Shown: positions 1,583 to 63,770 of the stretch, piece after piece | Layout of the letters: each line of letters starts with the position of its first letter | Numbering within the stretch: position 1 is the first letter of the stretch | Assembly: GCA_017513085.1 (NCBI GenBank) | Contig: JAFWDK010000022.1 | Span: forward strand, 68,919-132,918 | Origin: Clostridiales bacterium | Lineage (GTDB): Bacteria > Bacillota > Clostridia > Saccharofermentanales > Saccharofermentanaceae | Length of the DNA stretch: 64,000 bases | Direction: 5' to 3' | The notes under the pieces: generated by a model | Seen by the model: only the letters and a program-made list of their open reading frames with translations | Told to the model about the DNA's origin: nothing | The model's database searches: none | Program-made: the position numbers and the translations under genes

Positions 1583-3208
1583 ATGAAACTTAGAAGTAAA
1601 TTGACTACTGTTTTTGCAGTTGTCCTTTCTGTTGTGCTGGTACCGATTGCGGCGTCGAAGATACATCTTGAAGATGTATCGGAAGTGTCAGGCGTTCTTT
1701 CTGTCCGTCAGCAGGCTTGTTCCCGCGCTGTCGAGCAGAACCTGGGCCGGGAACCGGAGGCGACAGTCACACCGCCTGTATCTCCTACACCGACACCGGA
1801 AGGAATGCCGATCAACGACAGTAATTTCCCGGACGCCATGTTCCGCGAATATGTTTTCCGGTACGATGCGAACCGGAATGGTTATCTTACAGAAGACGAG
1901 ATCGCAACCATTACGGATATCCTTTGTCCTAAGAAGGGGATCACGAATCTGTCCGGCATCCAGTACTTCTCGAACCTCAGGAATCTTGTCGTAAATGATA
2001 ATGCGATCACTTCTGTGGAGCTTCGATACAATACTAATCTTGAGATCCTTTATATCAACAACAACAACCTCCAGTCTCTGGACATCAGTCACAATCCGAA
2101 ACTGAGGATGCTGGTGTGCTTTAATAATCAGCTTCCCAGTCTTGATGTTTGTCAGAATACCAAACTGGAGAGTCTGGATTGTTCCACAAACAGGATCAAA
2201 TACATTGATGTCAGTAAATGCGCAAACCTTTGTAATTTGAAGGTGGAAGGCAATCAGCTTACCTATCTTGATATTTCCCGCGTGCCTTTGATCAAACAGA
2301 CGTATGAGACCGGTACCCGAAGTGAAGCAAACGGAAAAGTCTATTACCATATGTCGGCAAACAACAAGATCTACATGTTCAATGTGGATGCAAGCGTGCG
2401 CGTCAGTTCCGATGGAACCGGTTCCCCGTTCCCGACCCCGTCTGACCCGACTCCTTCTCCGAACGACCCGTCTTTCGGCGATTTCGTAGAACGTCTCTAC
2501 AAGGTCGCGCTTGGCCGTGATTCTGAACCGGAGGGAAAAGCTTTCTGGATCAATAAAGTAGTTAAAGAAGGTGCGACCGGTGCGGAGTGCGCCCGCTACT
2601 TCCTGCTGACGGCTCCTGAGTTTATGAACCGCAAGCTCCCTAACGAAGAGTTCCTGGAGACTTTGTATCACACGTTCTTTGACCGTGAATCAGATGAGGT
2701 AGGTAAGGCTTTCTGGCTGGATCAGATGACTAAGGGCACACCCAAAAAAGATGTGGTGAATGCTTTTATCGAGTCTGAGGAGTGGTGTGATATCTGCGCA
2801 ACATACGGAGTTAAGTCCGGCGCAGTAGCGCATAAGGCAAAGATCGTTTCCAAGAATGCAAAAGCATTCGCGACCCGTCTTTATACTTGTTGCCTGGGCC
2901 GTGCGCCTGAGGAAGGCGGCTTGCAATACTGGGGCCTGGCATTAACGAATCTGGAAAAATCCGGATTTGCAGCTGCCTACCAGTTCTTCCATTCTGAAGA
3001 ATTCAACAATTACCGTTTCTCGGATGGCGAATACATTCGACGTCTCTATACCACTTTCATGGGCAGAGAACCGGAAGTAAACGGATTTAACTTCTGGCTG
3101 AATGCTCTGGCTAACGGAACTGATCGCGATACCGTACTGGTTGAGTTTGCCAAGTCTACGGAGTTCGGTAATATCTGTCTCACATATGGTATCGACCGAG
3201 GTGTGTAA
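1583..3208 (+). CDS. Secreted LRR surface protein with C-terminal DUF4214-type repeats
   Basis: Signal peptide, NFPD..FR cap, LxxLDxSxNxxL repeats, PT linker, then repeated FVERLY..LGR.....G..FW units. Confidence 0.85.
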   Translation: MKLRSKLTTVFAVVLSVVLVPIAASKIHLEDVSEVSGVLSVRQQACSRAVEQNLGREPEATVTPPVSPTPTPEGMPINDSNFPDAMFREYVFRYDANRNGYLTEDEIATITDILCPKKGITNLSGIQYFSNLRNLVVNDNAITSVELRYNTNLEILYINNNNLQSLDISHNPKLRMLVCFNNQLPSLDVCQNTKLESLDCSTNRIKYIDVSKCANLCNLKVEGNQLTYLDISRVPLIKQTYETGTRSEANGKVYYHMSANNKIYMFNVDASVRVSSDGTGSPFPTPSDPTPSPNDPSFGDFVERLYKVALGRDSEPEGKAFWINKVVKEGATGAECARYFLLTAPEFMNRKLPNEEFLETLYHTFFDRESDEVGKAFWLDQMTKGTPKKDVVNAFIESEEWCDICATYGVKSGAVAHKAKIVSKNAKAFATRLYTCCLGRAPEEGGLQYWGLALTNLEKSGFAAAYQFFHSEEFNNYRFSDGEYIRRLYTTFMGREPEVNGFNFWLNALANGTDRDTVLVEFAKSTEFGNICLTYGIDRGV

Positions 3209-14745: not shown

Positions 14746-15762
14746 TTAAGGAGTGTATATTGCCAGTCTGTTGTAGAGGCTGTTATACGGGTTCTCTACA
14801 TCTTCGAAATACATGGCAAGAAAGTCCGGATCAAGGCCTTGTGGGTTCATGATGGTGCCGTCCGGTGTCATGATGATCTCGACAGACCGTGCATAGAAGA
14901 ACAGGAGATCTTCTCCACGGTGTTCTTTCAGGAACAGGTCTAATTCCGCAAAGCTGTCTTTACTCTTTCCAAGCGTAAAGTGGATCTGTCCATCTTCGCC
15001 ATCCACCCGGAAGAGAGTGATCCTGGCAATAAGATCTTCTCCGTTATAGATGAAGTAGTCCCGGACGCTTTGATCAATGGTCAAGGATTCACCGGACACT
15101 CCCTCGTAGGAGATATGACAAAAACCGTCTGTTTTGAATTGGAGATTATCTGTCGGCGATTTGTCTGAACTTAGGATCTCTTTCAAAAATCCATGGTTTT
15201 CCGTGAAAAAGGCTTCTGCCTCTTCGTTGGTGATAGGTTCTCCGACAAGAACGATGCTGAGATCTGAAGGGAATTGCGGTTTGGTCAGGACCACTCCGCT
15301 TGTTTCATCGCCGGAAAGACCCGGATGATCCGTGCTTTCTCTTCTGGTATCTTCTATGGTTTCTTCTATGGTTTCTTCTGTGACTGCGGTATTGGATTCC
15401 TCATATGTCAACTGAGCCTGGTTAAGTTCAGTTTGATCAGCCAGAGTGGGATCCGATACTTGCGAGTTATGCTCTATTATTTTGTGGTCATCCCGGTCAT
15501 TTCCCGTAATGCCGCCAGCAGTTGTGGGTACAGTGTTTTGGGTTCTTTTTCCGAAGAATCCTCCGTACCAGAGGCCGATGCCGACAAGTGCCACGGCAGC
15601 AATGTTTCCGGCAATGATCATGAATGTCCGCAGGTTTTTTCTGCGTCGTGAAGCGTCAACGGAAGTCACGCTTGTGATTTGAGGCTTCGTTTCTTCATGG
15701 GCTTCCAGGATGTATTTCTCGTCGATGTCGCCAAGGATCTCAAATAAAGAATCATTCTTCAT
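14746..15762 (-). CDS. Putative anti-sigma factor (single TM)
   Basis: Overlaps the ECF stop (ATGA); N-terminal LFEILGDIDEKYILEA helix, one TM, extracytoplasmic domain. Confidence 0.7.
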   Translation of the reverse strand: MKNDSLFEILGDIDEKYILEAHEETKPQITSVTSVDASRRRKNLRTFMIIAGNIAAVALVGIGLWYGGFFGKRTQNTVPTTAGGITGNDRDDHKIIEHNSQVSDPTLADQTELNQAQLTYEESNTAVTEETIEETIEDTRRESTDHPGLSGDETSGVVLTKPQFPSDLSIVLVGEPITNEEAEAFFTENHGFLKEILSSDKSPTDNLQFKTDGFCHISYEGVSGESLTIDQSVRDYFIYNGEDLIARITLFRVDGEDGQIHFTLGKSKDSFAELDLFLKEHRGEDLLFFYARSVEIIMTPDGTIMNPQGLDPDFLAMYFEDVENPYNSLYNRLAIYTP

Positions 15763-16319
15763 GAAAGCAGACCTCCTTCCAGTAAAAGAGTGCGTAATTG
15801 TTTCTTAAGTCGGTTTAGGGTTACGGATACAGAGTTTTCTGTCATATTCATTCGATCGGCGATGTCTTTGATGCTGTCTACGTACCAGAAACGGCAAACG
15901 AAGATCTTTCTTTTTTCAGGTGTAAGGGAGGATAAAAAAGTATTCACCACATCCAGTAATTCACGCTTTAAGAGTTCTCCGTCGGCTGTCTCGCTTCCCT
16001 CGATCACTTCACTGAGTTCATCCAGTACAAGAGGAAAATCTCCACCTCCGCGCTTGGCGGCGTGGTTTTTCTTATAGAGGTTGAGCGCCAGATTTCGAGT
16101 GATCCGGCCGAGAAAGGGTGCGATTACGTCGGGCTTTTTCGGTGGGATCGAGTTCCACAAGGACAGATATGCGTCATTTACACATTCTTCCGTGTCTTCG
16201 GTATTGTTTAAAATATTGTGTGCAATAGAATGGCAGAAACGACCGTACTTTTTCGATACAGCTTCAAGAGCCTGTTCGCTCCTTTCAAAAAATAATTGTA
16301 CGATCGAAGCATCGTCCAT
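15759..16319 (-). CDS. ECF RNA polymerase sigma-70 factor
   Basis: Region 2 (DTEECVNDAYLSLW..FLGRITRNLAL) and region 4 (SIKDIADRM..NSVSVTLNR); RBS ggaggtg. Confidence 0.93.
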   Translation of the reverse strand: MDDASIVQLFFERSEQALEAVSKKYGRFCHSIAHNILNNTEDTEECVNDAYLSLWNSIPPKKPDVIAPFLGRITRNLALNLYKKNHAAKRGGGDFPLVLDELSEVIEGSETADGELLKRELLDVVNTFLSSLTPEKRKIFVCRFWYVDSIKDIADRMNMTENSVSVTLNRLKKQLRTLLLEGGLLS

Positions 16320-50537: not shown

Positions 50538-53168
50538 ATGAAAAGGCTAGCTAAGATTTTAGCCGCATCTTTAAGTGCGGCTGTTGTCTTGCCGACTTTC
50601 GGTAAGATCGGTGTTGATGCGACAGGCGGAGTTGCCATCAACGAAGAAAACTTCCCGGATCCGAACTTCCGGGCGTGCATCGTTAGAGATTTTGACGATG
50701 ACAAGAACGGCTATCTGAGTGATAGCGAGATCCAACTGATCTGGAATGTTCACTGCGAAAACAGTGACGTATACTCGGTAAAGGGTATTGAACACTTTCC
50801 TTATCTTAAGGGTCTTTGGTGTAAAGGAAACCATATTACGGAACTTGATCTTTCGGGAAACCCGGATCTCCGTGGTATCTGGTGTTCTTTTAACGATTTT
50901 AAATCTCTGGATTTTTCAGATTGCCCGAAACTTGAGTGGGTCTACTGCTTTAACTGCAATCTGGAAAGCCTGAATGTCCGCAATAACCCGGAAATGGCAT
51001 ATATCGAGTGTAATGCCAATCCTAAGCTCAAAGAACTTGATCTTTCTCAGAACTTTAAGTTGGAGAACCTGTTCTGCAGTGAATGCGGTCTTACTTCTTT
51101 GGATCTGTCGACTTGCCCGCTTCTTTGCGAACTGGCCGCTTTCAAGAATGATCTGGTATCTCTCGACGTTTCCAACAATCCGAATCTGAAAAGACTGGAT
51201 TACTGGCACAACGCCCGTCTGGGAAATGTTGATGTAAGTAATCTTCATGGTCTTCAGTATCTTAATTGTGCATGGACTAACGTAACGAAGCTCGATGTCA
51301 GCAATAACCCTGAGCTGGTTGAACTTGTTTGCAGTTATAACAAGGGGCTGAAGTCCGTGGATCTTTCCCACAACCCGAAACTTGCATATCTGAACGTAGA
51401 GATCGACGTCAATATGACAAAGTTGGATCTCTCCCATAACCCGAGACTTTTCCATCTGTATGCTTTCGGTATGTCCAGCCTGGATACTATCGACATCAGT
51501 AAGAACAGCCGTCTTTGCAAGGCATATAACGAGGGTACATATGTACACGAGACGGAAAACCTCGGCTATGTATATTCCAAGACTCTGGATTACGGCGGAA
51601 GTGAAGATCCGTTCGATGATCTGAAGCATATCGTTGTTTTCGATGACCGTGCGACGATCATCGGTAAGTACAATGGTACAAACGATGTTCCGGATAGTGT
51701 ACTGGATACAAATGACGGTCACTCTGATTCTGAACAGTTTGCTACACGTGCACAGGCTATGCAGCTTCTCTATGAGAAAGCCGGAAGTCCGGCTGTTGAG
51801 GGAACTTCCCGATTCAAGGATGTTGATCCGGCTGCGTCTTACGCTAATGCTGTAAAGTGGGGCGAAGACCATAAGATCTGCTTTGGTTATCCGCAGATCT
51901 GCTCGAATAATTTCTGCCCGGATGAGTTGATCTCCAGACAGGATTTCTCCCTTATGGCGCACAGATATGCAGATTGCCTGCATTTCGGTACTGCTTTTGA
52001 CTATGGTAGAACAGACTGGTTCGATGATTTCTTCGACATTGATTTCTATTGCTGGGGTACTTTTACCTGGGCGATCCAGTGGAGAGTATTGAAGTATGAC
52101 AAAGATAGCAATCTCTGCAAGCCTCGAGGAAGACTGACTGTTGCCGAGCTTAAGGCAGGCGTAGATGAGATCTTCGATCTTGACGAGGGTGCATCCTATT
52201 CCGATAGAGTCGGTGGTAACCATGGTGCACCGACGCCGGTTCAGCCGACTCCGACAACAGCACCGGGTCAGCCGACCGCTGCACCGCAGCCAGGTGATCC
52301 AAATCCGACGACTGCTCCGGTACAGCCGACAGCAGCTCCGGTACAGCCGACAGGAGCGCCGGTTTCACCGGCTCCGGCAACTCCGACTCCTACGCTGACA
52401 CCGGTCCCGGAGAAAGAACCTTCTATTGCAGATTTCGTTGAGCGTCTCTACACGATCGCGTTGAACCGTGAATCCGAGCCGGCAGGAAAAGCTTTCTGGG
52501 TCAAGGAGATCGAAGACGGTAACCGTACAGGCGGTGACTGTGCTTACTTCTTCCTGATCGAAGCACCGGAGTTCCAGAACCGTGGATTGGGTGACGAAGA
52601 TTTCGTTGAGACACTTTATAAGACATTCTTTGATCGTGCTTCCGAAGCAGACGGTAAGGCTTTCTGGGTAGGTCAGCTGAAGAATAAGACGATGACCAGA
52701 GATCAGGTCATCATGGGCTTCATTGATTCGAAAGAATGGTGCAATGTCTGCGCGACATATGGAGTGAAGTCCGGCGCACCGACTGCCAAGGCTGAAATTG
52801 CTTCGAAGAACGCGATCAACTTTGCCACACGTCTTTATACCTGCTGCCTCGGAAGAGAAGCAGAAGAGGGCGGCCTGAAGTACTGGTCGTTGGCACTTAC
52901 CAACCTTGAGCAGACTGGCTGCAGTGCAGCGAAACTGTTCTTCACAGGTAATGAGTTTGTTGGACTCAATCTCAAGGATGATGAGTATGTGACAAGACTT
53001 TATTTGACCTTTATGGATCGTGAACCGCAGGCGGGCGAAGTTTCCTACTGGGCAGGCGAGATTGCCAAGGGTACACAGACCAGAGACAGCGTACTTGCTT
53101 TCTTCGGACAGAGTGAAGAGTTCACGGAAATCTGTAAGAAGTATGGTATCGATCGTGGCACGATGTGA
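50538..53168 (+). CDS. Secreted LRR surface protein with SLH-like region, PT-rich linker and DUF4214-type repeats
   Basis: Signal peptide; NFPDPNFR cap; many LDLSxNxxL repeats; TRAQ..LY...F.DV...YANAVKW...F.P...I.RQ SLH pattern; C-terminal FVERLY module. Confidence 0.87.
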   Translation: MKRLAKILAASLSAAVVLPTFGKIGVDATGGVAINEENFPDPNFRACIVRDFDDDKNGYLSDSEIQLIWNVHCENSDVYSVKGIEHFPYLKGLWCKGNHITELDLSGNPDLRGIWCSFNDFKSLDFSDCPKLEWVYCFNCNLESLNVRNNPEMAYIECNANPKLKELDLSQNFKLENLFCSECGLTSLDLSTCPLLCELAAFKNDLVSLDVSNNPNLKRLDYWHNARLGNVDVSNLHGLQYLNCAWTNVTKLDVSNNPELVELVCSYNKGLKSVDLSHNPKLAYLNVEIDVNMTKLDLSHNPRLFHLYAFGMSSLDTIDISKNSRLCKAYNEGTYVHETENLGYVYSKTLDYGGSEDPFDDLKHIVVFDDRATIIGKYNGTNDVPDSVLDTNDGHSDSEQFATRAQAMQLLYEKAGSPAVEGTSRFKDVDPAASYANAVKWGEDHKICFGYPQICSNNFCPDELISRQDFSLMAHRYADCLHFGTAFDYGRTDWFDDFFDIDFYCWGTFTWAIQWRVLKYDKDSNLCKPRGRLTVAELKAGVDEIFDLDEGASYSDRVGGNHGAPTPVQPTPTTAPGQPTAAPQPGDPNPTTAPVQPTAAPVQPTGAPVSPAPATPTPTLTPVPEKEPSIADFVERLYTIALNRESEPAGKAFWVKEIEDGNRTGGDCAYFFLIEAPEFQNRGLGDEDFVETLYKTFFDRASEADGKAFWVGQLKNKTMTRDQVIMGFIDSKEWCNVCATYGVKSGAPTAKAEIASKNAINFATRLYTCCLGREAEEGGLKYWSLALTNLEQTGCSAAKLFFTGNEFVGLNLKDDEYVTRLYLTFMDREPQAGEVSYWAGEIAKGTQTRDSVLAFFGQSEEFTEICKKYGIDRGTM

Positions 53169-53170
53169 GC

Positions 53171-53280
53171 CGCAGAACTGATTCTTCGTCGCTGGTCCTC
53201 AGAAAGCAGTTCTGCTTCGCGGAGAGAGGAGTGCAGGATTGCGGCTGGGATCAGATGGGATACAAGATAAGGGTATCCGA
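53171..53280 (+). repeat. Short palindromic element plus GGATAC/GTATCC hairpin (copy A)
   Basis: GCAGAACTG..ttcttcgtcgctggt..cctcagaaa..CAGTTCTGC and gggatacaaga..ggtatccga, both shared with 63773-64000. Confidence 0.75.
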
Positions 53281-53300
53281 TAAATAGATAAACAAAGTGA

Positions 53301-53337
53301 AGGGCGGATTCCGGGTGACCGGGATCCGCTCTTTTTT
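53301..53337 (+). terminator. Rho-independent terminator
   Basis: agggcggattccgg/ccgggatccgctct stem plus T-run. Confidence 0.85.
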
Positions 53338-53382
53338 GTGGGAAAACTTTGATCAGCTACGATACAAGGTTGCGATTTCTGA

Positions 53383-53934
53383 TTACTTAAGGTTCTTGTA
53401 CATCAGGATCTCATCGTGGTATGTTCCGTCATCGAACAGAAGGGCATTGTGGCGGCGCCCGGTCTTGATAAAACCACACTTGCGGTAGAGTGCCTGTGCC
53501 TGCTCGTTTTCGACAACGACTTCGAGATCGACCTGGTGCCAGCCGATCTGAGCCGCCAGTTCGGTCATGTAATTGATCATGGCTGTTCCGATGCCCAGTC
53601 CCCAGAATTCTTCATAAAGCGCGATGGCAAGAGAGCATCTGTGACGGATCTTCCTTTTTTCTCCGATTCCGCTGATGCTTCCGTTTCCGGCGATTTTGCC
53701 ATCTACGACAGCTGCCATCATGATCGTGTATGGGTCTTCCAATAATCTTCCAAGGATCTCCTTCTCGCCTTCCAAAGTATAGTTTACTTCATCCGGGTTA
53801 CGAAGAAGGAAAGGAGTTTCGGCCGAAGTTTTCTTGAGATATTCCAACATACCTTCTGCCAGATCCGGCGCATTGGGGCGAAGAATGCAGGTTCTTCCAT
53901 CTTTCAAAGTGATTTCTCTTTCCAAAAAGCGCAT
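53383..53934 (-). CDS. GNAT family N-acetyltransferase
   Basis: FWGLGIGTAM motif A, LEV...N..A.ALY.K.GF; RBS gaggtg before ATG 53934. Confidence 0.9.
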   Translation of the reverse strand: MRFLEREITLKDGRTCILRPNAPDLAEGMLEYLKKTSAETPFLLRNPDEVNYTLEGEKEILGRLLEDPYTIMMAAVVDGKIAGNGSISGIGEKRKIRHRCSLAIALYEEFWGLGIGTAMINYMTELAAQIGWHQVDLEVVVENEQAQALYRKCGFIKTGRRHNALLFDDGTYHDEILMYKNLK

Positions 53935-54027
53935 ATCGGGACACCTCGTTTCTTTCGTTTTTCTCATTGTATCGGGACACGGAAAAAGAAACAAGTATGC
54001 TGCTGGTATAAGACCTCGAAGAAAAGA

Positions 54028-55968
54028 TCACATTCCGAAAGAAGTGTTTTCCCGGCAAACAAAATAGTTGAAACGAGGGTCATAGATGATTTCGATGCCT
54101 GTCGAGAAGGTCTGCCCGTAGCGGTTTTTGATAATGCTCAGTTCCAATTCGCGCGGGTTCTTCTCTTTCGCCTCTTCGAGATAGAAGTCACGTTCGTCGA
54201 CATGGGAGAAGTGGAAAGTGATCAGCACATCTGTAGCGGCCTCGATCCGTCGCAGATATGAAAGTGTTTCTTTATCCTCGACACCTTTCTTGATCGGATG
54301 GCTCCATGAAGAGATACACAGTATCGGGATCTCGAAATCTCTAGCCAGACGGCTGAGCGCACTGACATTTTTGTCCACGAAGAAATTATCTTCGATCTGC
54401 TTTTCTTTTACGGATACGAACATTCCTTGAAGAGAGTCAATGATGACGATCGGAGAAGTGTTATTCGTTACACTTCTGTACAATGCCAGTTTTTCCCGAA
54501 TATCGTCAACGGAGATGCTTCCGGTCAGGTCATAGATGAACAGATGATTGGCGTAAGTTCTGTATTCGTTGATACTGGAACCCAAAACGGAGATCTCGTC
54601 ACGACTGTAGCTTCTCCACTTGCGGCCATCTGCAACACCCAGGCCGGACTTGGCATAACTAAGCGGAATGTTATGCTTTTCACAGTATTCATATGTTTCT
54701 CTGCTGATCGACTTGCTGATCAGGTCCTTCTTGGACTGCGACAGAGAGAAGAACAGGACATCCTGACCTTGCTTGGCCAGATTATCTGCTATCTGCACCA
54801 GGAAAGTGGTTTTGCCGAGAGAAGAGGCCCCACCGAAAACATAAAGTCCGGGGAAGAGTCCGCCGTCTAAGGCTTCATCCAGCCCGGAAAAACCGGTTTG
54901 CGGAAGAGTTTTAGAGGCACTGGATTTGATTTCCCGCAGAAGACCGGAGACAGCACTTCCTGCCGAGAAGCCGGAAAACTCTTCGCGTGCGCATTCGATC
55001 TGATCCGGAAGAGCAAAAGCCTGCTTGGTGGCAGATTCGATATTTGCGCGAAGACCGGACATGTCTTCCACTAAGCGATGATTCACATCTTTATATCCGC
55101 TGGAGATCTCCGGATAACTCAAGAAAGCAATCTTGCGCTTCTTCAGTTCAAGCGAAAGGAGCTCATTCAGATCATTGGGCAGACAGAGGATAAGAGGAAC
55201 TTTAGGGACCTGCATATCAATATCTTTTACCAGAAGTGACAAAGAGAAGGAGGAGAGGATCGCTATGGCCTGCCCGCCCAGCTGGATAATGGAGAGGGCG
55301 TCGAAAATTCCACCGCAAACGAAGATAGGTTCTTCGCTTTCGTCGAGAAGACACTGTCCGTTGAAGATCTTGGCAGTACCATGTTTCCTGAACTTATGAC
55401 GATTTCTCGTAACATTCATTTCCACGTCGATATTTCGGGCTTCGTATGTTGATTCAGAAGTCGGAAGGATGACGGCACGGTAGGACTGTCCTGTGATTTC
55501 ATCTACAAAGTTTTCGTCATAGCCGAGATAGAAACGTTCGATCATCTCATCGCTGATGCCTCTTTTGCGGAAGTAATTCGTCTGAGAGACATTCTCGTGA
55601 CAATCCAGAATATACTCTGACATCTTTCTGGAGGAGTCTTGTTCCCTAGGTTCTTCCGACGGTGCTTCGTGTATGAGCTCCACGTCATAGATTGAACAGG
55701 CTTCAAGGAAGATCTTCGAGTAATTCTCGGAAGATGCATAAAGTTTGACTTTCTTAAGGTCAGCAAGAAGCTGGAAAATGTCAGATGTTTTCTTACATGC
55801 AGGACAATAAAACTCTTTCGCCGCACTGCCGTAATACAATCCGGACTCGCCTTCTTCTTTCCCGTAATGGCAGGCAGGGCAGACATATGTCTTTTCAGAT
55901 GCTTTTTCAAGAAAAATCGGCATCTGACCCTTGATATAATCCATGGCATCCTGGTAATTCAATTCCAT
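54028..55968 (-). CDS. Primase-helicase fusion (Zn finger, TOPRIM-like, DnaB-like SF4 helicase), catalytically degenerate
   Basis: CPAC..CPAC; YF.KRGIS; IFVCGGIFDALS; YKDVN; TGF..LD.ALDGGL; GASSLGKTT; IIDSLQ; LARDFEIP; IIKNRYG. Confidence 0.82.
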   Translation of the reverse strand: MELNYQDAMDYIKGQMPIFLEKASEKTYVCPACHYGKEEGESGLYYGSAAKEFYCPACKKTSDIFQLLADLKKVKLYASSENYSKIFLEACSIYDVELIHEAPSEEPREQDSSRKMSEYILDCHENVSQTNYFRKRGISDEMIERFYLGYDENFVDEITGQSYRAVILPTSESTYEARNIDVEMNVTRNRHKFRKHGTAKIFNGQCLLDESEEPIFVCGGIFDALSIIQLGGQAIAILSSFSLSLLVKDIDMQVPKVPLILCLPNDLNELLSLELKKRKIAFLSYPEISSGYKDVNHRLVEDMSGLRANIESATKQAFALPDQIECAREEFSGFSAGSAVSGLLREIKSSASKTLPQTGFSGLDEALDGGLFPGLYVFGGASSLGKTTFLVQIADNLAKQGQDVLFFSLSQSKKDLISKSISRETYEYCEKHNIPLSYAKSGLGVADGRKWRSYSRDEISVLGSSINEYRTYANHLFIYDLTGSISVDDIREKLALYRSVTNNTSPIVIIDSLQGMFVSVKEKQIEDNFFVDKNVSALSRLARDFEIPILCISSWSHPIKKGVEDKETLSYLRRIEAATDVLITFHFSHVDERDFYLEEAKEKNPRELELSIIKNRYGQTFSTGIEIIYDPRFNYFVCRENTSFGM

Positions 55969-56196
55969 AGAAACTGTTCCCCCCGGTTTCGTATTCTCCT
56001 TATACACCAGTAAAGCCGAAAAACAGGGAAAAGTAAAGGTTTTTAGATAAGAAACATGGTTTTTCCGGTTGTTTGATTGAAACAGGGATGACACTGACTC
56101 TTCGAAATCAGATGTCAAACAATTTCTCATTTATGATATCGACCTGCGGACCATTTCTATACTCCGAGAGCGTCAACAGGAAACAGAAAAAAAGCA

Positions 56197-56205
56197 TGCT
56201 ATAAT
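56197..56205 (+). promoter_or_regulatory. Extended -10 promoter element
   Basis: TGCTATAAT upstream of the GH8 gene. Confidence 0.6.
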
Positions 56206-56247
56206 GAATACTATCGTTAAGTGAGAAGCACTAAGGAGGGGATCATC

Positions 56248-57393
56248 CTGGACAAGAGAACATACCGGAACGTCTTTTTGGAGATCGGAAAGACGGAAGA
56301 GGAGATAGAAAAAAAGATCAAAGAAGCTGTGCAGACATTCTTTTTTGATGAGAAGGAACGTATCTACCATGAAGCCGGTGAGGACATGGGGTATTTGGAA
56401 GATACGGGTAATCATGACGTGAGGACGGAAGGCATGTCCTATGGCATGATGATGGCCGTGCAGCTGGATAGAAAAGATATCTTTGACCGGATATGGAAAT
56501 GGGCGAAGACATATATGTATATGGATCAGGGAGATAACGAAGGATACTTCGCCTGGTCCTGCAAGACGGACGGAACAAAGAATGCTTTTGGTCCTGCACC
56601 GGACGGAGAAGAGTTCTTCGCTATGTCACTGTTTTTTGCTTCACACAGATGGGGCGATGGAGAAGGGATCTTCGCATATAGTGAACAGGCCGGATCGATC
56701 CTTCGCGCATGCCTCCACAAGGGAGAAAACGGACGCGTGGGCGCGCCGATGTGGAACCATGAGAACCATCTGTTTCTTTTTGTGCCGGGATGTCCGTTTA
56801 CTGATCCGTCGTACCATTTGCCGCATTTTTATGAGCTTTTTGCATTGTGGGCGGATGAAGAGGATCGGGATTTCTTCCGCCAGGCCGCGACGGCGAGCCG
56901 GGAGTATCTGGTCACAGCCTGCCATCCGAAGAGCGGACTGAATGCTGAATATGCACATTTCGATGGTTCACCGGTAGAGGAGAAATTGCCCTGGGGATAT
57001 TTCGGAGATTTCTTCAGTGATGCTTACAGGACTGCTGCCAATATCGGTCTGGATGCGGAATGGTTTGGAAAAGATGCCGGACAGTTCAGCATCCCGCTTC
57101 GTATGATGCAATTCTTCGGAACTGATCTTGAGGCGGTAAGGTGCGCTTATAAGATCGACGGGACACCACTGGAACGTCCTGTGCTTCACCCGCTCGGGCT
57201 TCTTGCCACGATTGCGCAAAGTGCCCTGACTGTACCACATAGTGATGCGGAAGGAAGTGCTTTTGCCGTAGCAAGAAAATGGGTGGAATGGTTCTGGAAC
57301 CAGCCGCTCCGAAAGGGCAACCGCCGCTACTATGACAATTGCCTGAGTATGTTTGCGCTTCTGGCGCTATCCGGAAATTACCGTATATGGTGA
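56248..57393 (+). CDS. Glycoside hydrolase family 8, reducing-end xylose-releasing exo-oligoxylanase-like
   Basis: YRNVF, DVRTEGMSYGMM, FAWS, PAPDGEEFFAM, FTDPSYHLPHFY, SDAYR, RYYDNCL; no signal peptide. Start is uncertain (GTG 56221 or CTG 56248). Confidence 0.9.
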   Translation: MDKRTYRNVFLEIGKTEEEIEKKIKEAVQTFFFDEKERIYHEAGEDMGYLEDTGNHDVRTEGMSYGMMMAVQLDRKDIFDRIWKWAKTYMYMDQGDNEGYFAWSCKTDGTKNAFGPAPDGEEFFAMSLFFASHRWGDGEGIFAYSEQAGSILRACLHKGENGRVGAPMWNHENHLFLFVPGCPFTDPSYHLPHFYELFALWADEEDRDFFRQAATASREYLVTACHPKSGLNAEYAHFDGSPVEEKLPWGYFGDFFSDAYRTAANIGLDAEWFGKDAGQFSIPLRMMQFFGTDLEAVRCAYKIDGTPLERPVLHPLGLLATIAQSALTVPHSDAEGSAFAVARKWVEWFWNQPLRKGNRRYYDNCLSMFALLALSGNYRIW

Positions 57394-57431
57394 ACGACGG
57401 ATCATGAGTAGGGAATACCGGCCCGTGGTCT

Positions 57432-58202
57432 TTACGGCTGTTCCGGGATCCAGCACATATAATATCCGCAGTTCGGATCACACGGGAAATCCTGGAGCTG
57501 TTCTTTGGTCAGGGTGCCTTGAAGGGTGATATCAGCGGATCGTAGATAGCCGCAGGAAACATTCTGTACCCGATGCACATCGTAACCCAGTTCCGAAAGC
57601 CGCTTCAGTTCAGCTTCCATTCTTTCGTCGATCGTTGCTTCATTATTGCCGAAAGATATAGTTTCTCCGCTTTCCGTATAGAAGACCAGCTCGATATTGA
57701 TTGCGACTTTCATATGCGGATCAGCATCGTCATGAAGCAGTACCGAGAGCTGGCTGCATGAATTGATCTTTCCGCGGCCAGGTACGTACTCATCCCAGCT
57801 GCATTCTTGTTCCGGAGCCATTCTTACATCGTCCGCGAAAGTGGGATCGCTGGCAAAAGACTCTTCAGTCGGAATCGTGGTCGTCTCAGAAAAAGTCGTC
57901 GTCGGCGGATTCGCTTCGGTAGGAGGAAGATCCGACGGAATATATGGAATAGTGGTCGCATAGGTTGAGCTTTGTATCATATTATTGTTATTTATCTGAG
58001 TGAAAAGCACTATCGTTCCGCCGATCACAAGGATTCCGGCGGCTGCGACGCCTATGATGTGCCACGGGATGATGGAGCGGATCTTCGGGCGGGTAGAATG
58101 TTCCTTAAAGGAATAGTCGGCAGCTTCCTCAATGTGTTTTTCCGAAATGCCGGTAATGGCCTCGAAGATCTTATCTTCTTTTTCCAGTCTGTCATTACTC
58201 AT
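57432..58202 (-). CDS. Putative anti-sigma factor (single TM)
   Basis: ATGA overlap with the ECF gene; IFEAITGISEKHIEEA helix, one TM, P/T linker. Confidence 0.7.
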   Translation of the reverse strand: MSNDRLEKEDKIFEAITGISEKHIEEAADYSFKEHSTRPKIRSIIPWHIIGVAAAGILVIGGTIVLFTQINNNNMIQSSTYATTIPYIPSDLPPTEANPPTTTFSETTTIPTEESFASDPTFADDVRMAPEQECSWDEYVPGRGKINSCSQLSVLLHDDADPHMKVAINIELVFYTESGETISFGNNEATIDERMEAELKRLSELGYDVHRVQNVSCGYLRSADITLQGTLTKEQLQDFPCDPNCGYYMCWIPEQP

Positions 58203-58756
58203 ATCGCCACTCCTTCCTTTTCCAGAAAGGTCTTCAGTTGCTTACGTAAGGCAAACAGTTTTTGTGATAACTGGTTCGAAGACATGCCTGCTTTATTTGC
58301 CAGATCGGAAACTGCGTCTCCGAACCAATAGCGGCGTACAAATAGTACCCGATCCTTCTGGGCGAGGCTATCCAGCCAATGATCAATGATCTTGGAAAGC
58401 TCATGCATTTCGATGGCTTTTTCCACATTTTGGGAAGAAGGAACTATTTCAAAAAGTTCGTCCAGGGATTGCATGATACCGAAATTTCTTTTCTTCGCTG
58501 TCCGTTTCCGGAAAACCATCAGTGCCAGTTTTCGGGTGATTCCGCCTAAGAAAGCGCGAAGAGAATTCGGTCTTGTCGGAGGGATCGCATTCCAGGCGGC
58601 AAGCATGGTATCATTGACGCATTCTTCCGAATCTTCATGGCTTTCCAAAAGATTCCAGGCGATAGCATGGCAAAAACTTCCATACTTCTTCTGTGATTCG
58701 GAAATTGCATTCTCATCCCGTGAAAAATATAGTTCAATGATACTCTTGTCTTCCAT
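58199..58756 (-). CDS. ECF RNA polymerase sigma-70 factor (paralog of 15759-16319)
   Basis: KYG.FCH.IA.N.L...DSEECVND...WNAIPP..P..L.AFLG.ITR.LAL; FVRRYWFG. Confidence 0.92.
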   Translation of the reverse strand: MEDKSIIELYFSRDENAISESQKKYGSFCHAIAWNLLESHEDSEECVNDTMLAAWNAIPPTRPNSLRAFLGGITRKLALMVFRKRTAKKRNFGIMQSLDELFEIVPSSQNVEKAIEMHELSKIIDHWLDSLAQKDRVLFVRRYWFGDAVSDLANKAGMSSNQLSQKLFALRKQLKTFLEKEGVAI

Positions 58757-58761
58757 CCCAA

Positions 58762-59250
58762 TCACTCAAGCGTGTAAAAATTCATGTACTGGTTTTCATT
58801 ATACTCTACAAAGAGATGATGCGGGTATTTCTCGCATGTATAGACGGCCATACCTACTTTCAGATCCACTCCGGTGGCAACAAAGTCTTCCTCAGGCAGT
58901 TTTCTTACATCCACATGCTTGATCGTGCCGGCCTTAGTAAACCCATCCGGAAGTTTATCGGAAAAACCTTGGTTGCTATAACGGAAGAGTTTACCGTTAA
59001 GCCAGATCTGTGGAAGCTCGATCTCCACAGCGCCGACTCCGGTCGGAGAATCGACGATGTCAGGTTCTATAGTGTCGTGGGTATACCAGCTGACATTTCC
59101 TTCATCATCAACATCTAAGATCACACCCTTCGCGGTATAATATGTTTCTTCTTTTGCCGAGCATCCTGCGGATAAAAATGTTATTCCGAAAGAGATCGTT
59201 GCAACAGCAACTGTAATATATCGGAGCAAGATTTCATTTCGCTTTTTCAT
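58762..59250 (-). CDS. Hypothetical lipoprotein
   Basis: Signal-like N-terminus with LSAGC; RBS aggagg before ATG 59250; abuts the ECF gene. Confidence 0.65.
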   Translation of the reverse strand: MKKRNEILLRYITVAVATISFGITFLSAGCSAKEETYYTAKGVILDVDDEGNVSWYTHDTIEPDIVDSPTGVGAVEIELPQIWLNGKLFRYSNQGFSDKLPDGFTKAGTIKHVDVRKLPEEDFVATGVDLKVGMAVYTCEKYPHHLFVEYNENQYMNFYTLE

Positions 59251-59618
59251 ATCGGTCCTCCTTCCTAAGACCAAGGCATCGTGGGATGCATTTTATGACA
59301 ATCGTTTTGTTGTTTATGGCCTTCACTATATTAGTTGCATATTTTAGCCGGATATTTGAATCAAAACGAAAAAAGAACTCACTAATCCATATTCATTATA
59401 CTTCTTCATCATGTATTCTCTAGCGGAAAATTGTCCACGAATGTTTGTATATGTTCAGAAAGTGACGTAAGATTTGCGACAAAAAAGTATGAAATGCGAA
59501 AATTTGAAATCTTCTGATACCTTAGACTATCACTATTGTCTTCGGGGGGAATTTGTTGTTTTTTCACGACACGGATTGAGACATGCCTTTTATTGGATAA
59601 TATTGGAGGGATGTAACA

Positions 59619-62600
59619 ATGATGACGAAGACCAGGGGATTTCTGTCTGCATGCGCAGGTATTTTGACTGCCATTATGTTGACGAATATGTTTACTCCGT
59701 TTACGGAAAAATCACTTGCCTATGAAAGTGAAGAGGTGGACACGCCGTTGCTCGCTTCTGCTGCGATGCCGAAAGATGTGGATTCATCCGTCGATATCGA
59801 TCCGAATTTTAAAGTGCCGTATGTTTCGACTTATTATTTTAATCCGAAGCCTACGATCAACGATACGATCAAGATCCCGCTTTATCTCACAGACTATGAG
59901 CAGTCTGAATACTTAAAAAACGATACTTCAGGGAGACTTAATCTTCTTTATGAAGTGGACGGGGTCAAGAAGACCATCAATAGCATTCCTTTGGGTGACT
60001 ACACCTTAACGATAGGGAAACTAAGTGAAGGAATGCATCGGTTAGCGATCCAGGCCGTTGATCCGAAGACTGGTTTGAAATCTCATAAGCTTTATAACGA
60101 ATTATGGGTGGTAAATCCTTCAAAATACAACATTTCTCAATCTCAGACGTATATCATGACCGAAGCGGATCTTAAGACCTATAAGATCAAGAATAACAAT
60201 AGTACAAATGCAAATGACTTGATCAATACAAGAGACGGCCTGACGAAGCTTTTTGCGCAAAAACAGGCAGAAGGATACAGGAAGATCGTTCTTCTCAAGG
60301 GCACATACCGCATCAACGGAGAAGAAGCCCGCAAGAACAGTATCACTATACCTTCCAACTTTACCGTAGATATGAATGGCAGTACTTTCAAAATGGAAAA
60401 GTTCAAAAGTAACGCCAACGGATCGATCGTCTGTATGATGAATGCTGTAGATGCACATCTGATGAATGGCACACTGGAGGGCAACCGCTTCGAAAGGAAG
60501 GCTGATAAACTGGAATCCGGTCCCCTTGGAGAAAGCATTAATACAATCTTTCTTGAGGGAAGTCAGTATTGTTCGGTAACGGGTCTGACGATTCAAAATT
60601 CTACAGGTCACGCTATTCTTACCATGTATTCTCAAGAGCGTGGTGCAAATATTTCAATGACGAATTTTTCCCGTTCACTCATTGTCAATGGAAAGGAAGT
60701 GCCCAACAGTAAATGTAGTACCAGTTCGATGCTGGATATTTCTTCCATATTGAAAGTCGATCCGGAAAACCGGTATATGTATGTCGGACATCCAGGAGGA
60801 TATAAAGGTCAATTGGGAGATTCTCCGGTCATATATGTGTCTTTCTATGATGCCAATCAGAAATTTCTTGAAACCGTAACCGGATTCCAGTTCAGAAAAA
60901 TGCGTATCGTGGATGGCGCAAAATACGCAAGAGTTTCTTTCCTTGGAACGCAGTTTCCATATTCGGAAGCGAAATTCAGTATGCATATATATACTCAGCA
61001 GAATACGGATTATTTTGAAGTCAGCAATGTGCATTTTATCGATACAAGAACAACGGCTCTAGCTCCTACTGCTGTGACAAATATGCTGATCCGTGACTGT
61101 AAGTATACAAGATGCGGAAATAGTATTACTCCTTGCGAAGTTGACTTTGAGGATGGACAGGAGGAGTGCCAGGATCTCTACTACATGAATAATGAAGTGC
61201 TGGAGAGGACCAAAAACAACACATGTACAGTTGTTGATAATATCGGTTATAACCATGTTTACGAAGGAAATATAAACCATAAGATGGAAATAAGAAATCG
61301 TGTAATCGGCGGAGTGATCCGAAACATTAACGATGGATGCTCCCGTGTATACTGGCGGCTGGCCTTCAAAGATCAAGGTGCTTATGGAAGAATCTATAAC
61401 AATAACTGTGGTGCGATCAATTTTTCCGGCGAATTCAGTTCTCCAACCGGCTGTGTCGAATTCCGGGTAAAGAATTGTACGATCTATAATCAAGATCCCA
61501 ATGTCGACATGGACACGAACACGTGGGTAGGAGCGGTTGCGAAGAAGGTCACATATGAAAACTGCAAATTCCCTTGGTTCGCCGGTTCCAATGCGACATT
61601 TGTCAATTGCTCGCTGACGCCGGTCCATGCAATAGGAAATAACCTTTATTTCTATAATTGTACGATTGGAGCAAGTGGTAGTGTCAGCCAATATAACTTA
61701 AGCAACGTGGATAATGTGACCAGAGTGTTTGATAACTGTCATTTTATTGGAAAGACCGAGTTTAAAAACTATGGACTCAAGTCCGCTACATTTACAAAAT
61801 GCACTTTTGACGATCTTGGCATGATCCCATGTGTCGGAAATACTGACGAATTGCTTTTCTTTGATGAATGTACGATCAAGTCTTCCGATGATAAGTTCCT
61901 TGAAGTAGGTGCGTGGACATACTCGATCGGAAATATCCATGTGTTATTCCGAAATTGCAATATCACGCATACCGGTAAAACATTTATTTACATCACCGCA
62001 GCAACGCTGGATGAGAGTCAGATCATCTTTGATAACTGTAAGATCAATAAATCCTCAGGCACACTTCTGTCGGCGTATCCGCATGCGGATAAAGATAAAA
62101 AGCCTGACTGGTCGATCGACATCTATTTCAATAACACCTCGACAGATCCCAATCTGACGATCGATACAAAGAATGTGGATTTTAATATTGTCCATATTTT
62201 CCACGATGTACAGGTAAAACCACCCAAGACGCCGACAAAAACACCTACGAAGACGCCCACTAAGACGCCAACAAAAGCACCAACAAAGACACCAACAAAG
62301 ACACCAACAAAGACACCAACAAAGACACCGTCTGTGACTCCGACCAAAGCGCCGACAGGTGTACCCGGTAAGATCACCCCGACCAAGGCGCCGACAGGTG
62401 TACCCGGTAAAATTACCCCGACCAAGGCGCCGACAGGTGTACCGTCCAAGGTGCCGACGAAGACGCCAAGTGTGACACCGACACGTGCACCGGGAGTGAG
62501 CCCGACAAAGGTTCCGACACGTGTACCGGGCCCGACAAGTATGCCGACTCCAAGACCAACATCGGTGCCGACGAAAATACCGACCCGGGTACCGACAATA

Positions 62601-63770
62601 ACTCCGACTCCGACGCCGGAAGTACCATTTGTAAGAATGCCGGATGTGATCGGCATGAACTACCGTGATGCGAAGAGTCAGATCACCAGAGAATTGAAGA
62701 GCGCCGGATTCAAAACGGTCGAAATCGAATATGAATGGAAACCGTGCACGGATCCGGAAATGAATCTTACTGTTTTGGAGACGGACCCGGAGGCAAATGA
62801 AGTAGTCTATCTGGTTGATACCTCGATCACGGTAAAGATCGTCGTCGCGAAACTTGATTCCGAACCGATGCCGACAAGTACCCCGGTTCCGACTTGGACC
62901 CCGACAAAGGCGCCGACCATGGCCCCGACGGGCGCGCCAACCAGAAAGCCTACACCTACCCAGGCACCTGTTCCGACAGGCGCGCCGGGAACGACAGTTA
63001 CGCCGACACCGACACCGGCTCCGACGATAGGAGATTTCGTCGAAAGACTTTACACGATCGCACTGGACCGTGCATCCGAAGCGGAAGGAAAAGCTTTCTG
63101 GGTCAACGAGATCGAGAGCGGCAACCGTACAGGTGGCGATTGTGCCCACTTCTTCCTGATCGAAGCACCGGAGTTCCTGAACCGCGGATTAGATGATGAA
63201 GATTTTGTCGAGACACTTTATCTGACATTCTTCGACCGTGCGTCGGAGACCGACGGCAAAGCATTCTGGGTAGGCGAACTCAAAGCAGGAAGACTGACCC
63301 GAGAAGATGTCATCAACGGCTTCATCGATTCCACGGAATGGTGCAACGTTTGTGCGACCTATGGAGTCAAATCCGGTGCACCCCATGCGAAAGCAGAGAT
63401 CGCTTCGCAGAATGCGATCGACTTTGCGACCCGTCTGTACACATGCTGCCTCGGAAGAGAAGCGGAAGAAGACGGACTGAAGTACTGGAGTCTGGCACTG
63501 ACAAACCTCGAGCAGACAGGATGCGGCGCGGCCAAGCTGTTCTTCACAGGCGATGAGTTTATCGGACTGAAACTCAACAATGAAGAATACATCATCAGAC
63601 TTTATACGACCTTTATGGATCGTGAACCGGAATATACAGAAGTGGTTTATTGGGCGGGAGAGATCCGGAAAGGCAGACAGACACGTGACAGCGTGCTTGC
63701 ATTCTTCGGAAGCAGCGAAGAGTTCACGGCCATCTGCAAGAAATACGGCATCGATCAGGGCACAATATAG
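59619..63770 (+). CDS. Large secreted protein: right-handed beta-helix region, PT/K-rich linker, PASTA-like domain, DUF4214-type repeats
   Basis: Signal peptide; L.KGTYRI..I.IPSN.TVDMNGSTF and repeated F.NC.I strands; TPTK repeats; VRMPDVIGMNY.DAK; FVERLY module. Confidence 0.8.
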   Translation: MMTKTRGFLSACAGILTAIMLTNMFTPFTEKSLAYESEEVDTPLLASAAMPKDVDSSVDIDPNFKVPYVSTYYFNPKPTINDTIKIPLYLTDYEQSEYLKNDTSGRLNLLYEVDGVKKTINSIPLGDYTLTIGKLSEGMHRLAIQAVDPKTGLKSHKLYNELWVVNPSKYNISQSQTYIMTEADLKTYKIKNNNSTNANDLINTRDGLTKLFAQKQAEGYRKIVLLKGTYRINGEEARKNSITIPSNFTVDMNGSTFKMEKFKSNANGSIVCMMNAVDAHLMNGTLEGNRFERKADKLESGPLGESINTIFLEGSQYCSVTGLTIQNSTGHAILTMYSQERGANISMTNFSRSLIVNGKEVPNSKCSTSSMLDISSILKVDPENRYMYVGHPGGYKGQLGDSPVIYVSFYDANQKFLETVTGFQFRKMRIVDGAKYARVSFLGTQFPYSEAKFSMHIYTQQNTDYFEVSNVHFIDTRTTALAPTAVTNMLIRDCKYTRCGNSITPCEVDFEDGQEECQDLYYMNNEVLERTKNNTCTVVDNIGYNHVYEGNINHKMEIRNRVIGGVIRNINDGCSRVYWRLAFKDQGAYGRIYNNNCGAINFSGEFSSPTGCVEFRVKNCTIYNQDPNVDMDTNTWVGAVAKKVTYENCKFPWFAGSNATFVNCSLTPVHAIGNNLYFYNCTIGASGSVSQYNLSNVDNVTRVFDNCHFIGKTEFKNYGLKSATFTKCTFDDLGMIPCVGNTDELLFFDECTIKSSDDKFLEVGAWTYSIGNIHVLFRNCNITHTGKTFIYITAATLDESQIIFDNCKINKSSGTLLSAYPHADKDKKPDWSIDIYFNNTSTDPNLTIDTKNVDFNIVHIFHDVQVKPPKTPTKTPTKTPTKTPTKAPTKTPTKTPTKTPTKTPSVTPTKAPTGVPGKITPTKAPTGVPGKITPTKAPTGVPSKVPTKTPSVTPTRAPGVSPTKVPTRVPGPTSMPTPRPTSVPTKIPTRVPTITPTPTPEVPFVRMPDVIGMNYRDAKSQITRELKSAGFKTVEIEYEWKPCTDPEMNLTVLETDPEANEVVYLVDTSITVKIVVAKLDSEPMPTSTPVPTWTPTKAPTMAPTGAPTRKPTPTQAPVPTGAPGTTVTPTPTPAPTIGDFVERLYTIALDRASEAEGKAFWVNEIESGNRTGGDCAHFFLIEAPEFLNRGLDDEDFVETLYLTFFDRASETDGKAFWVGELKAGRLTREDVINGFIDSTEWCNVCATYGVKSGAPHAKAEIASQNAIDFATRLYTCCLGREAEEDGLKYWSLALTNLEQTGCGAAKLFFTGDEFIGLKLNNEEYIIRLYTTFMDREPEYTEVVYWAGEIRKGRQTRDSVLAFFGSSEEFTAICKKYGIDQGTI
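62221..62456 (+). repeat. Coding tandem repeats: 12-bp (TPTK) and 39-bp (PTKAPTGVPGKIT) arrays
   Basis: caccaacaaaga x4 perfect at 62278-62325; ccgacc-initiated 39-bp units at 62340, 62379 and 62418. Confidence 0.9.

Follow-up and report, generated by a model that had tools for sequence, protein, structure and literature searches.

A chromosomal relative of phage and plasmid primase-helicases in Clostridiales with the catalytic residues of both enzymes replaced and a probable non-catalytic role

A 64,000-nt stretch of a Clostridiales genome (GenBank assembly GCA_017513085.1, contig JAFWDK010000022.1, positions 68,919 to 132,918; hereafter the window) carries, at 54028..55968 on the minus strand, a gene of 646 codons plus stop that resembles the primase-helicases of phages and plasmids and in which catalytic acidic residues of both enzymatic domains are replaced. 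An initial annotation, made from the window sequence, had suggested a domesticated pseudo-enzyme. Comparison with relatives supports the view that the catalytic residues have indeed been lost, in a targeted and inherited way, and that the gene is under strong purifying selection and not decaying. By descent and fold the protein, as read from its sequence, is a member of the T7 gp4/plasmid primase-helicase family that fails the catalytic-motif tests of both TOPRIM primases and superfamily 4 (SF4) helicases. We favor, with moderate confidence, the reading that it is an exapted, non-catalytic, probably ring-forming descendant of these enzymes that still binds nucleoside triphosphates (NTPs) and whose catalysis was lost in two steps.

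The three parts named in the initial annotation, a zinc finger, a TOPRIM-like part and an SF4 helicase part within one intact open reading frame (ORF), were confirmed by ORF analysis, Pfam, PHROG, an AlphaFold2 model and fold matches. A longer frame of the same ORF is possible from 56130, but we place the start at 55968 because five orthologous lineages, with proteins of 645-646 amino acids (aa), begin at the same Met, so that M1 is invariant in the orthologue alignment. All parts lie on the minus strand. The zinc ribbon (residues 30-58, CPAC...CPAC; 55795..55881), delimited by the family alignment, keeps all four cysteines. It is followed by a primase-like catalytic core (residues 111-310; 55039..55638), placed by fold alignment, which has no Pfam Toprim match and keeps 16 of 18 family-conserved positions; by a linker (residues 311-355; 54904..55038) that includes a helix predicted by the models to pack on the adjacent subunit; and by a DnaB-type RecA-fold domain (residues 356-646; 54031..54903), identified by Pfam, DnaB alignment and fold match. 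DnaB_C (PF03796) covers residues 357-634 well above threshold (1.4e-23; 84.1 bits against a cut-off of 27), and PHROG 239 (phrog_239, 'DNA primase/helicase') matches at 2.6e-27. The Pfam DNAG_N match is weak, every NCBIfam DnaB model stayed far under its cut-off (75.6 bits against 385), and none of the Toprim families PF13155, PF13362 and PF13662 matched the protein (P0002, from genome G000) at E ≤ 1e-2 in the Pfam scan.

A word-indexed search gave 86 relatives, and HMMER, run exhaustively, gave 1,568 representatives at E ≤ 1e-30; they are the best matches to the query and not a random draw from the family. A 229-sequence alignment, comprising the fetched proteins minus P0001 and P0003, was used together with a 30-sequence alignment. 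The TOPRIM Glu and DxD motif are needed for priming by DnaG and gp4, as are the general-base Glu and the H3 and H4 motifs for translocation by RecA-fold hexameric helicases. At the position of the TOPRIM Glu, which is Glu in 219 of 229 sequences, codon 219 of the window gene is GGT (Gly; 55312..55314), and the motif reads VCGGIFDALS against the family pattern V/I-x-E-G-x-x-D-A-L/I-S. At the DxD motif, codons 264-266 (55171..55179) encode Pro-Asn-Asp, giving LPND in place of D-x-D, with the first Asp lost and a five-residue deletion following relative to active relatives.

In the helicase part, codon 410 is TCG (Ser; 54739..54741) at the position of the catalytic Glu (H1a), which aligns to FSLEMS and is Glu in 223 of 229 sequences. 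SSWSH (residues 553-557; 54298..54312) replaces the SSLNR/SSFNR of the family at H3, with positions 555 (Leu/Phe in relatives) and 556 (Asn in relatives) both replaced; the motif Arg has no clear counterpart, being His in one alignment and Lys560 in the other. LRRIEAATD (residues 572-580; 54229..54255) stands in place of FKESGxIEYxSD in the H4 DNA-binding loop, which reads L-R-R-I-E-A with E-S-G gone, and five orthologues share a new conserved L-[KR]-[KR]-I pattern there. A phmmer alignment to Geobacillus DnaB places FSLSQS on FSLEMS, SSWSH on SQLSR and LRR...IEAATD on RESGSIEQDAD. Other elements are kept: Walker A SLGKTT (residues 383-388, GKTT being 385-388; 54805..54822), with Lys in 229 of 229 sequences; Walker B Asp511 (54436..54438), Asp in 229 of 229, although the next residue, the Tyr of DYLQ, is Ser in all five sequences of an inner clade described below; Gln514; and the arginine-finger strand K614-N-R616 (54121..54129), with Lys in 225 and Arg in 223 of 229. 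The zinc-finger cysteines C30, C33, C55 and C58, in columns that hold Cys in 222, 150, 221 and 222 of 229 sequences, are invariant across the nine-sequence clade to which the gene belongs. The DnaB and family alignments thus bear out each replaced and each retained motif that the initial annotation had listed. Along the sequence no compensating acidic residue was found beside the lost motifs, a statement about linear proximity only, and the net charge of the domains lies inside the range of active relatives, which is not decisive.

The nearest relatives form two groups. An inner clade comprises P0002 and P0004-P0007 (plus P0003, 99% identical, with an alternative start), its members being 75-77% identical to P0002, and a middle clade comprises P0008-P0011 at 46-49% identity. 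All other relatives are at most 42% identical, and nearly all of these carry Toprim_2 (PF13155), many also Toprim_3 (PF13362); P0003-P0011 have no Toprim model in precomputed Pfam annotation and carry PF03796, plus PF13481 in two. The ten exceptions at the TOPRIM Glu column are the five inner-clade sequences (Gly), the four middle-clade proteins (Ser/Ala) and a truncated protein that has a gap there. At the first position of DxD, 219 of 229 sequences have Asp, and the ten that do not are the nine clade members and P0091. At the helicase Glu the six exceptions are four inner-clade sequences, P0140 (Lys) and P0228 (Ala), and the five inner-clade sequences read S, S, E, A and S, with Glu in P0005. 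The middle clade retains SLEQS, SALNR, KESGxIEYGSD and DYLQ, where the inner clade has SL[S/A/E]QS, S[SA]W[SNT]H, L[KR][KR]I[EA] and DSLQ. The conserved loss of acidic residues, named as a check in the initial annotation, holds for the TOPRIM Glu and first Asp, gone in all nine sequences, and fails for the helicase Glu, kept in P0005.

The same division appears over the whole alignment. Among the 220 active relatives outside the nine-sequence clade, 84 columns are at least 90% conserved. Of the 18 such columns in the primase domain, two are changed in the inner clade (both metal ligands) and two in the middle clade; of the 61 in the helicase domain, 17 are changed in the inner and 3 in the middle clade; and the five zinc-finger columns are changed in neither. 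In total 54 of the 84 columns are still invariant. A quick maximum-likelihood tree (IQ-TREE, 64 rows, with SH-like approximate likelihood ratio test (SH-aLRT) support) unites inner and middle clades with SH-aLRT 100 on a stem of 0.73. The stem of the inner clade is long, 0.89 changes per column compared with 0.15-0.19 for its tips. The nine-sequence clade and a 34-row active group lie inside a 44-row clade with support of 100, whose internal branching we draw as unresolved; the nine-sequence clade is nested within the active family.

As far as residues can tell, this pattern shows two losses in order. In the first step, in the ancestor of the nine-sequence clade, the TOPRIM Glu was replaced together with the leading Asp of DxD, and the five residues following DxD were deleted; two metal ligands required by DnaG-type primases were thereby lost while the helicase motifs stayed intact, as in animal Twinkle. 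In the second, on the long stem to the five-sequence sub-clade, H3 SSLNR, the H4 KESG loop, DYLQ and K528/Q529 were rewritten, and constraint on the catalytic Glu then fell away (S, S, E, A, S). Where DNA is available, site 410 is encoded by TCG, TCC and GAG; with the Ala of P0006, this fits a path Glu>Ala>Ser after the residue was released from constraint. The initial annotation had proposed targeted loss in both active sites without frameshift; the loss is real, targeted and free of frameshifts, but it was not simultaneous, the TOPRIM site having changed first in a clade with intact helicase motifs.

Two observations on other members of the family may be recorded here. P0140 and P0228, otherwise ordinary, have an intact TOPRIM Glu and DxD and the helicase Glu replaced by Lys and Ala, which suggests that helicase catalysis was lost independently in other parts of the family. 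In the cluster of P0008, the fragments P0247 (154 aa) and P0249 (476 aa), each from a 5843-nt contig, are probably one split or frameshifted middle-clade copy.

Structure prediction points to a retained fold. The AlphaFold2 model, built from 30 relatives, has a mean predicted local distance difference test score (pLDDT) of 85.4, and its best Foldseek matches are T7 gp4 (5ikn, 1q57), human Twinkle (7t8c, 7t8b) and DnaB (4esv). Residues 111-641 align to T7 gp4 5ikn_D over both domains (442 aligned, Z 20.8, root mean square deviation (rmsd) 18.0), and the model aligns to 1q57_A with Z 20.5 and rmsd 9.7; the high rmsd to gp4 stems from the way the domains are arranged. The primase fold is retained overall, with the model aligning to the gp4 primase and helicase from residue 111. 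Residues 322-646 align to DnaB 4esv_B with Z 27.2 and rmsd 3.4 (271 aligned), and the helicase half aligns to SPP1 G40P 3bh0 with Z 27.0 and rmsd 3.7 (275 aligned). A three-copy prediction of residues 320-646 scored 0.54, against 0.01 for the best control, and passed the mark. In the calibration, which differs from the three-copy job, 20 of 30 proteins with solved pair structures and 1 of 23 with solved single-chain structures attain that mark. At least 89% of contacts agree between the runs, and partner pLDDT is at least 77. The predicted interface packs the linker helix (324-353) on residues 410-501 of the neighbor and also takes in the P-loop and residues 614-618. Likeness to solved DnaB and gp4 rings may account for the pass.

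The retained parts also keep alive the alternative of a working motor or replication protein, dead as a primase and still active as helicase or ATPase for an unrecognized integrated element or a host pathway. Walker A and B, Gln514 and Lys614/Arg616 are kept, P0005 retains the helicase Glu, D223, D266 and D294 are still present, the sister middle clade looks primase-dead and helicase-intact, and a ring interface is predicted, with the qualification just given. Set against this, 17 of the 61 conserved helicase positions are changed, both DNA-binding loop motifs among them, and the Glu site varies between S, A and E in the inner clade where 223 of 229 sequences overall have Glu. The gene could be viewed with its surrounding DNA at three loci, namely the window, L006 (in genome G120) and L023; no mobile-element genes were found at any of them, and no conserved non-coding element, iteron or origin-like block was found in their flanks. 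We regard a working motor as unlikely.

Selection was estimated by the Nei-Gojobori method on the three inner-clade genes with DNA (window, L006 and L023). Over the whole gene the proportion of nonsynonymous differences (pN) is 0.13-0.15 and that of synonymous differences (pS) 0.65-0.73, which is saturated, so the ratios of nonsynonymous to synonymous substitution rates (dN/dS) given here are rough upper-bound estimates: about 0.05-0.10 for the whole gene, 0.10-0.12 for the primase-like part where computable, 0.07-0.09 for the helicase part and 0.17-0.27 for the linker, the least constrained part. A ratio below 1 had been named as a check on the pseudo-enzyme proposal, and it is low in both halves. 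P0002 and P0005 are 75% identical, whereas DnaB of the same two genomes (G000 and G120) is 68% identical. The frame, said from the start to be intact, is full length and without frameshift in five species-level lineages, and some 12 additional near-identical members have it at full length too. These results, with the 54 of 84 family-conserved columns that are still invariant and the higher conservation than DnaB between G000 and G120, make a neutrally decaying relic of a dead plasmid or prophage, its frame intact by luck, very improbable, even though the gene is patchily distributed, its locus is variable and one middle-clade copy is apparently split.

Near-identical DNA occurs in animal gut metagenomes from 14 studies. 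Contigs from RNA libraries of three studies cover parts of the gene, one of 942 nt spanning 55051-55991, which is a weak hint of transcription, since these are assembled contigs and DNA carry-over is possible. In the metatranscriptome contig X16 a 1-nt insertion lies at window position 55976, just 5' of the start codon, a strain variation in the 5' leader.

The active relatives indicate where the gene came from. Full-length relatives with about 30-33% identity over 96-100% of the length are large ORFs of 6.7-10.8 kb plasmids of Streptococcus thermophilus and Streptococcus sp.; further ones are carried by 6-14 kb plasmids of Lactobacillus delbrueckii and Limosilactobacillus and by two Streptococcus suis phages. 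In IMG/VR, relatives of about 30% identity occur on contigs of 13.3-14.8 kb, of which L104, L111, L114 and L116 have identical terminal repeats of 107 or 127 nt, indicating circular assemblies. L108 (1-13696) encodes TerL, ParA, a primase-helicase, a portal protein, an S78 prohead protease, a major capsid protein and an HNH protein, and L104, L108, L111, L114 and L116 make up a family of small circular, capsid-encoding, ParA-bearing elements. A relative of 36% identity (L024) adjoins ParA, and L108 and L033 share a metagenome with L023. Because active relatives sit on such elements, the ancestor was a replication protein of small plasmids or capsid-forming elements.

Around the window gene itself nothing of this kind is seen, in agreement with the initial annotation: none of the 40 window ORFs scanned matched integrase, relaxase or phage Pfam families, no tRNA was found in the window, and the search for flanking or att-like repeats gave only chance-like matches of 14-26 nt. 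The G+C composition of the locus is unremarkable. The 3.06 Mb genome has no second copy, its matches being the true DnaB (26% identity over the helicase part) and another RecA-fold protein, and a promoter and terminator scan did not rise above shuffled sequence (3 found for a shuffle mean of 3.9, and 4 for 3.3). P0005 is encoded on the 201 kb contig that also carries dnaB, and the contigs behind the middle-clade proteins, from Clostridiales metagenome-assembled genomes, reach 95 kb. The gene is chromosomal but accessory, in a fluid region and without a conserved partner.

Pfam also confirms the neighbors first proposed, a GNAT acetyltransferase gene downstream on the same strand (53383-53994, minus) and a GH8 glycoside hydrolase gene upstream and divergent (56221-57393, plus). 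At L006 the neighbors are a convergent DUF4214 gene behind a terminator-like hairpin and, upstream, a small ORF and an FMN-reductase-like gene; at L023 they are ABC/FtsX genes upstream and an SPFH gene downstream. Conserved synteny, another expectation of the initial annotation, is not found, the three loci having three different sets of neighbors. The GNAT ORF starts 33 nt past the stop codon of the primase-helicase on the same strand, yet a two-gene module of the two, for example sensor and effector, is most improbable, because synteny is not conserved, with GNAT absent beside the orthologues at L006 (DUF4214) and L023 (SPFH), and the GNAT protein has no PADLOC match.

The gene is rare among relatives. 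The initial annotation had treated its absence from close relatives, or neutral decay in them, as evidence against domestication; absence is largely the case, with only 1 of 23 other species of the genus having the gene, while decay is not borne out by the low dN/dS. By DnaB identity the nearest species is G130 at 93%, followed by G120 at 68% and others at 58-65%. Since most relatives, including G130, do not have it, we take it to be accessory and not a fixed host gene. Window positions 53169-59618 (6.4 kb, from an LRR-DUF4214 gene to a gene for a 1383-aa surface protein) correspond to about 31 kb in G130 (contig C64, about 43600-74600; L163 and L164). The window interval holds six genes, for GNAT, the primase-helicase, GH8, a 256-aa ORF, an extracytoplasmic function (ECF)-type sigma factor and a 170-aa ORF. 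The sequenced part of the G130 interval has genes for a polysaccharide deacetylase, an HTH-TPR regulator, GH39, an AraC/GyrI-like protein, LemA and other accessory functions, and no mobile-element hallmark was found in the sequenced half adjoining the LRR gene. A middle-clade query matched 3 of 300 order genomes at E ≤ 1e-40, the third being an active-type relative with 38% identity, and an alignment query of genome contigs yielded one inner-clade locus.

The rest of the window encodes LRR/SLH/DUF4214 surface proteins, ABC/FtsX transporters, two-component systems, glycoside hydrolases and enzymes of central metabolism. Three of its proteins (52229-53169, 1583-3208 and 59619-63770) carry DUF4214 as the C-terminal module of an LRR/SLH surface protein; the module matches about 40 places in G130 at 69-84% DNA identity and appears to be shared by a very large surface-protein family in the genus. 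Twice in the window an ECF-type sigma-70 gene and the ORF downstream of it, for which Pfam gives no match, share a few bases (58199-58765 with 57432-58202, and 15759-16319 with 14746-15762); these are possibly sigma/anti-sigma pairs.

Known systems help to place the protein. T7 gp4 and the plasmid and phage primase-helicases of PHROG 239 have the same three-part architecture and fold, and the window protein nests in their family, but it is without the TOPRIM Glu, the first DxD Asp, the helicase Glu and the H3 and H4 motifs. Unlike the genes of its PHROG 239 relatives, its gene is chromosomal and alone, with no ParA, capsid or other element genes adjoining. DnaB and SPP1 G40P are the best structural match to residues 322-646 and share Pfam DnaB_C; in contrast to DnaB, the N-terminal domain is replaced by a zinc-finger and primase-like module, and the genome has its own DnaB.

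Animal Twinkle is characterized, in passages of three papers, as a primase-dead, helicase-active protein of gp4 type (PMC3610141, PMC6299598, PMC2241861), and its N-terminal domain, in a passage of one of them, as still contributing to single-stranded DNA (ssDNA) binding and helicase activity (PMC2241861). As in the window protein, the primase domain of Twinkle is kept but inactive, and its chains 7t8c_A and 7t8b_A are among the top fold matches. The middle clade (P0008-P0011) would be a direct bacterial parallel of Twinkle, with the inner clade one step further. Whereas Twinkle is an essential active helicase and has lost its zinc cysteines, the window gene is accessory, its helicase motifs are lost and its zinc cysteines are kept. 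The engineered mutants T7 gp4 E343Q and T4 gp41 E227Q carry substitutions at the same catalytic Glu and, going by the titles of PDB entries (6n7i, 6n7n, 6n7s, and 8gao, 'stalled primosome with mutant gp41-E227Q'), still form stalled rings bound to nucleotide and ssDNA. Those are laboratory point changes with the DNA-binding loops intact; the window protein lost the residue naturally, and its loops have been rewritten as well.

Under the favored reading the protein would still fold like gp4 and DnaB and would assemble head-to-tail through the linker helix, with NTP bound at the subunit interfaces. No primer synthesis is expected because the TOPRIM Glu and the first DxD Asp are absent, and no NTP-driven translocation because the general-base Glu and the H3 and H4 loops are absent; the protein may instead remain static and, depending on nucleotide, bind DNA or a partner protein. 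The cellular role is the weakest step of the proposal, and the sensor, decoy and regulator functions put forward in the initial annotation are candidates only. We tentatively put first an interference with the replication of related plasmids or satellites, a possibility we rate below even odds. The protein might block related replicons by sitting on their priming or loading sites, or by joining their primase-helicase rings and poisoning these. It would then be a captured replication protein, both of its enzymes disarmed, kept as a replication-immunity factor in the form of an NTP-locked, non-translocating ring or ring subunit, with the primase-dead, helicase-intact middle clade as the evolutionary intermediate; this too we hold to be possible and not probable. 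Interference is favored by where the gene came from, by its patchy occurrence as an accessory gene and by active relatives being found in the same habitat. After interference we would rank a scaffold or regulator of host DNA transactions, and then residual motor activity, the less likely alternative discussed above.

A number of observations weigh against these proposals. We infer the loss of both activities from residues, P0005 keeps the helicase Glu, and residual or altered ATPase activity may persist. Three TOPRIM acidic positions (D223, D266 and D294) are still occupied, and 29 positions are newly acidic in the inner clade, a count that bears on compensation only as judged along the sequence. 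The dN/dS values come from three DNA sequences with saturated dS, and a low dN/dS is unlike an arms race. The gene is rare: of the 142 species genomes in the family, just two, G000 and G120, have a match at E ≤ 1e-20, and G130 is without it at the syntenic locus, although that genome is 84% complete and may have a copy elsewhere. No neighbor or partner is conserved at the three loci, so context gives no clue to the role, and no middle-clade locus was found in genome contigs, viral contigs or the 300 order genomes, or among the metagenome matches listed. The surroundings are not a recognizable defense island, and the PADLOC matches are weak and at the level of domains, to the DnaG-like part of a DRT model (7.2e-09, residues 177-246) and to mad8 (3.4e-04), with no partner genes seen.

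In the open literature searched we came upon no account of a primase-helicase on a bacterial chromosome that lacks both activities and is nonetheless under strong selection, and a search on the plasmid family and on dead DnaB-like or primase-helicase proteins brought up no paper bearing directly on them. Pseudoenzymes among replication proteins are well known in eukaryotes, the dead primase of animal Twinkle being an example. What the present family appears to offer is a natural series of three stages, fully active, primase-dead and doubly dead, that makes testable the role of a hexameric-helicase scaffold able to bind nucleotide but unable to move. Should the interference role be true, it would be a new principle for bacterial immunity and plasmid incompatibility, and the immunity reading would imply a new kind of defense by a 'dead replisome part'. 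A role in host DNA transactions would instead make the protein a new accessory factor of rumen and gut Clostridia.

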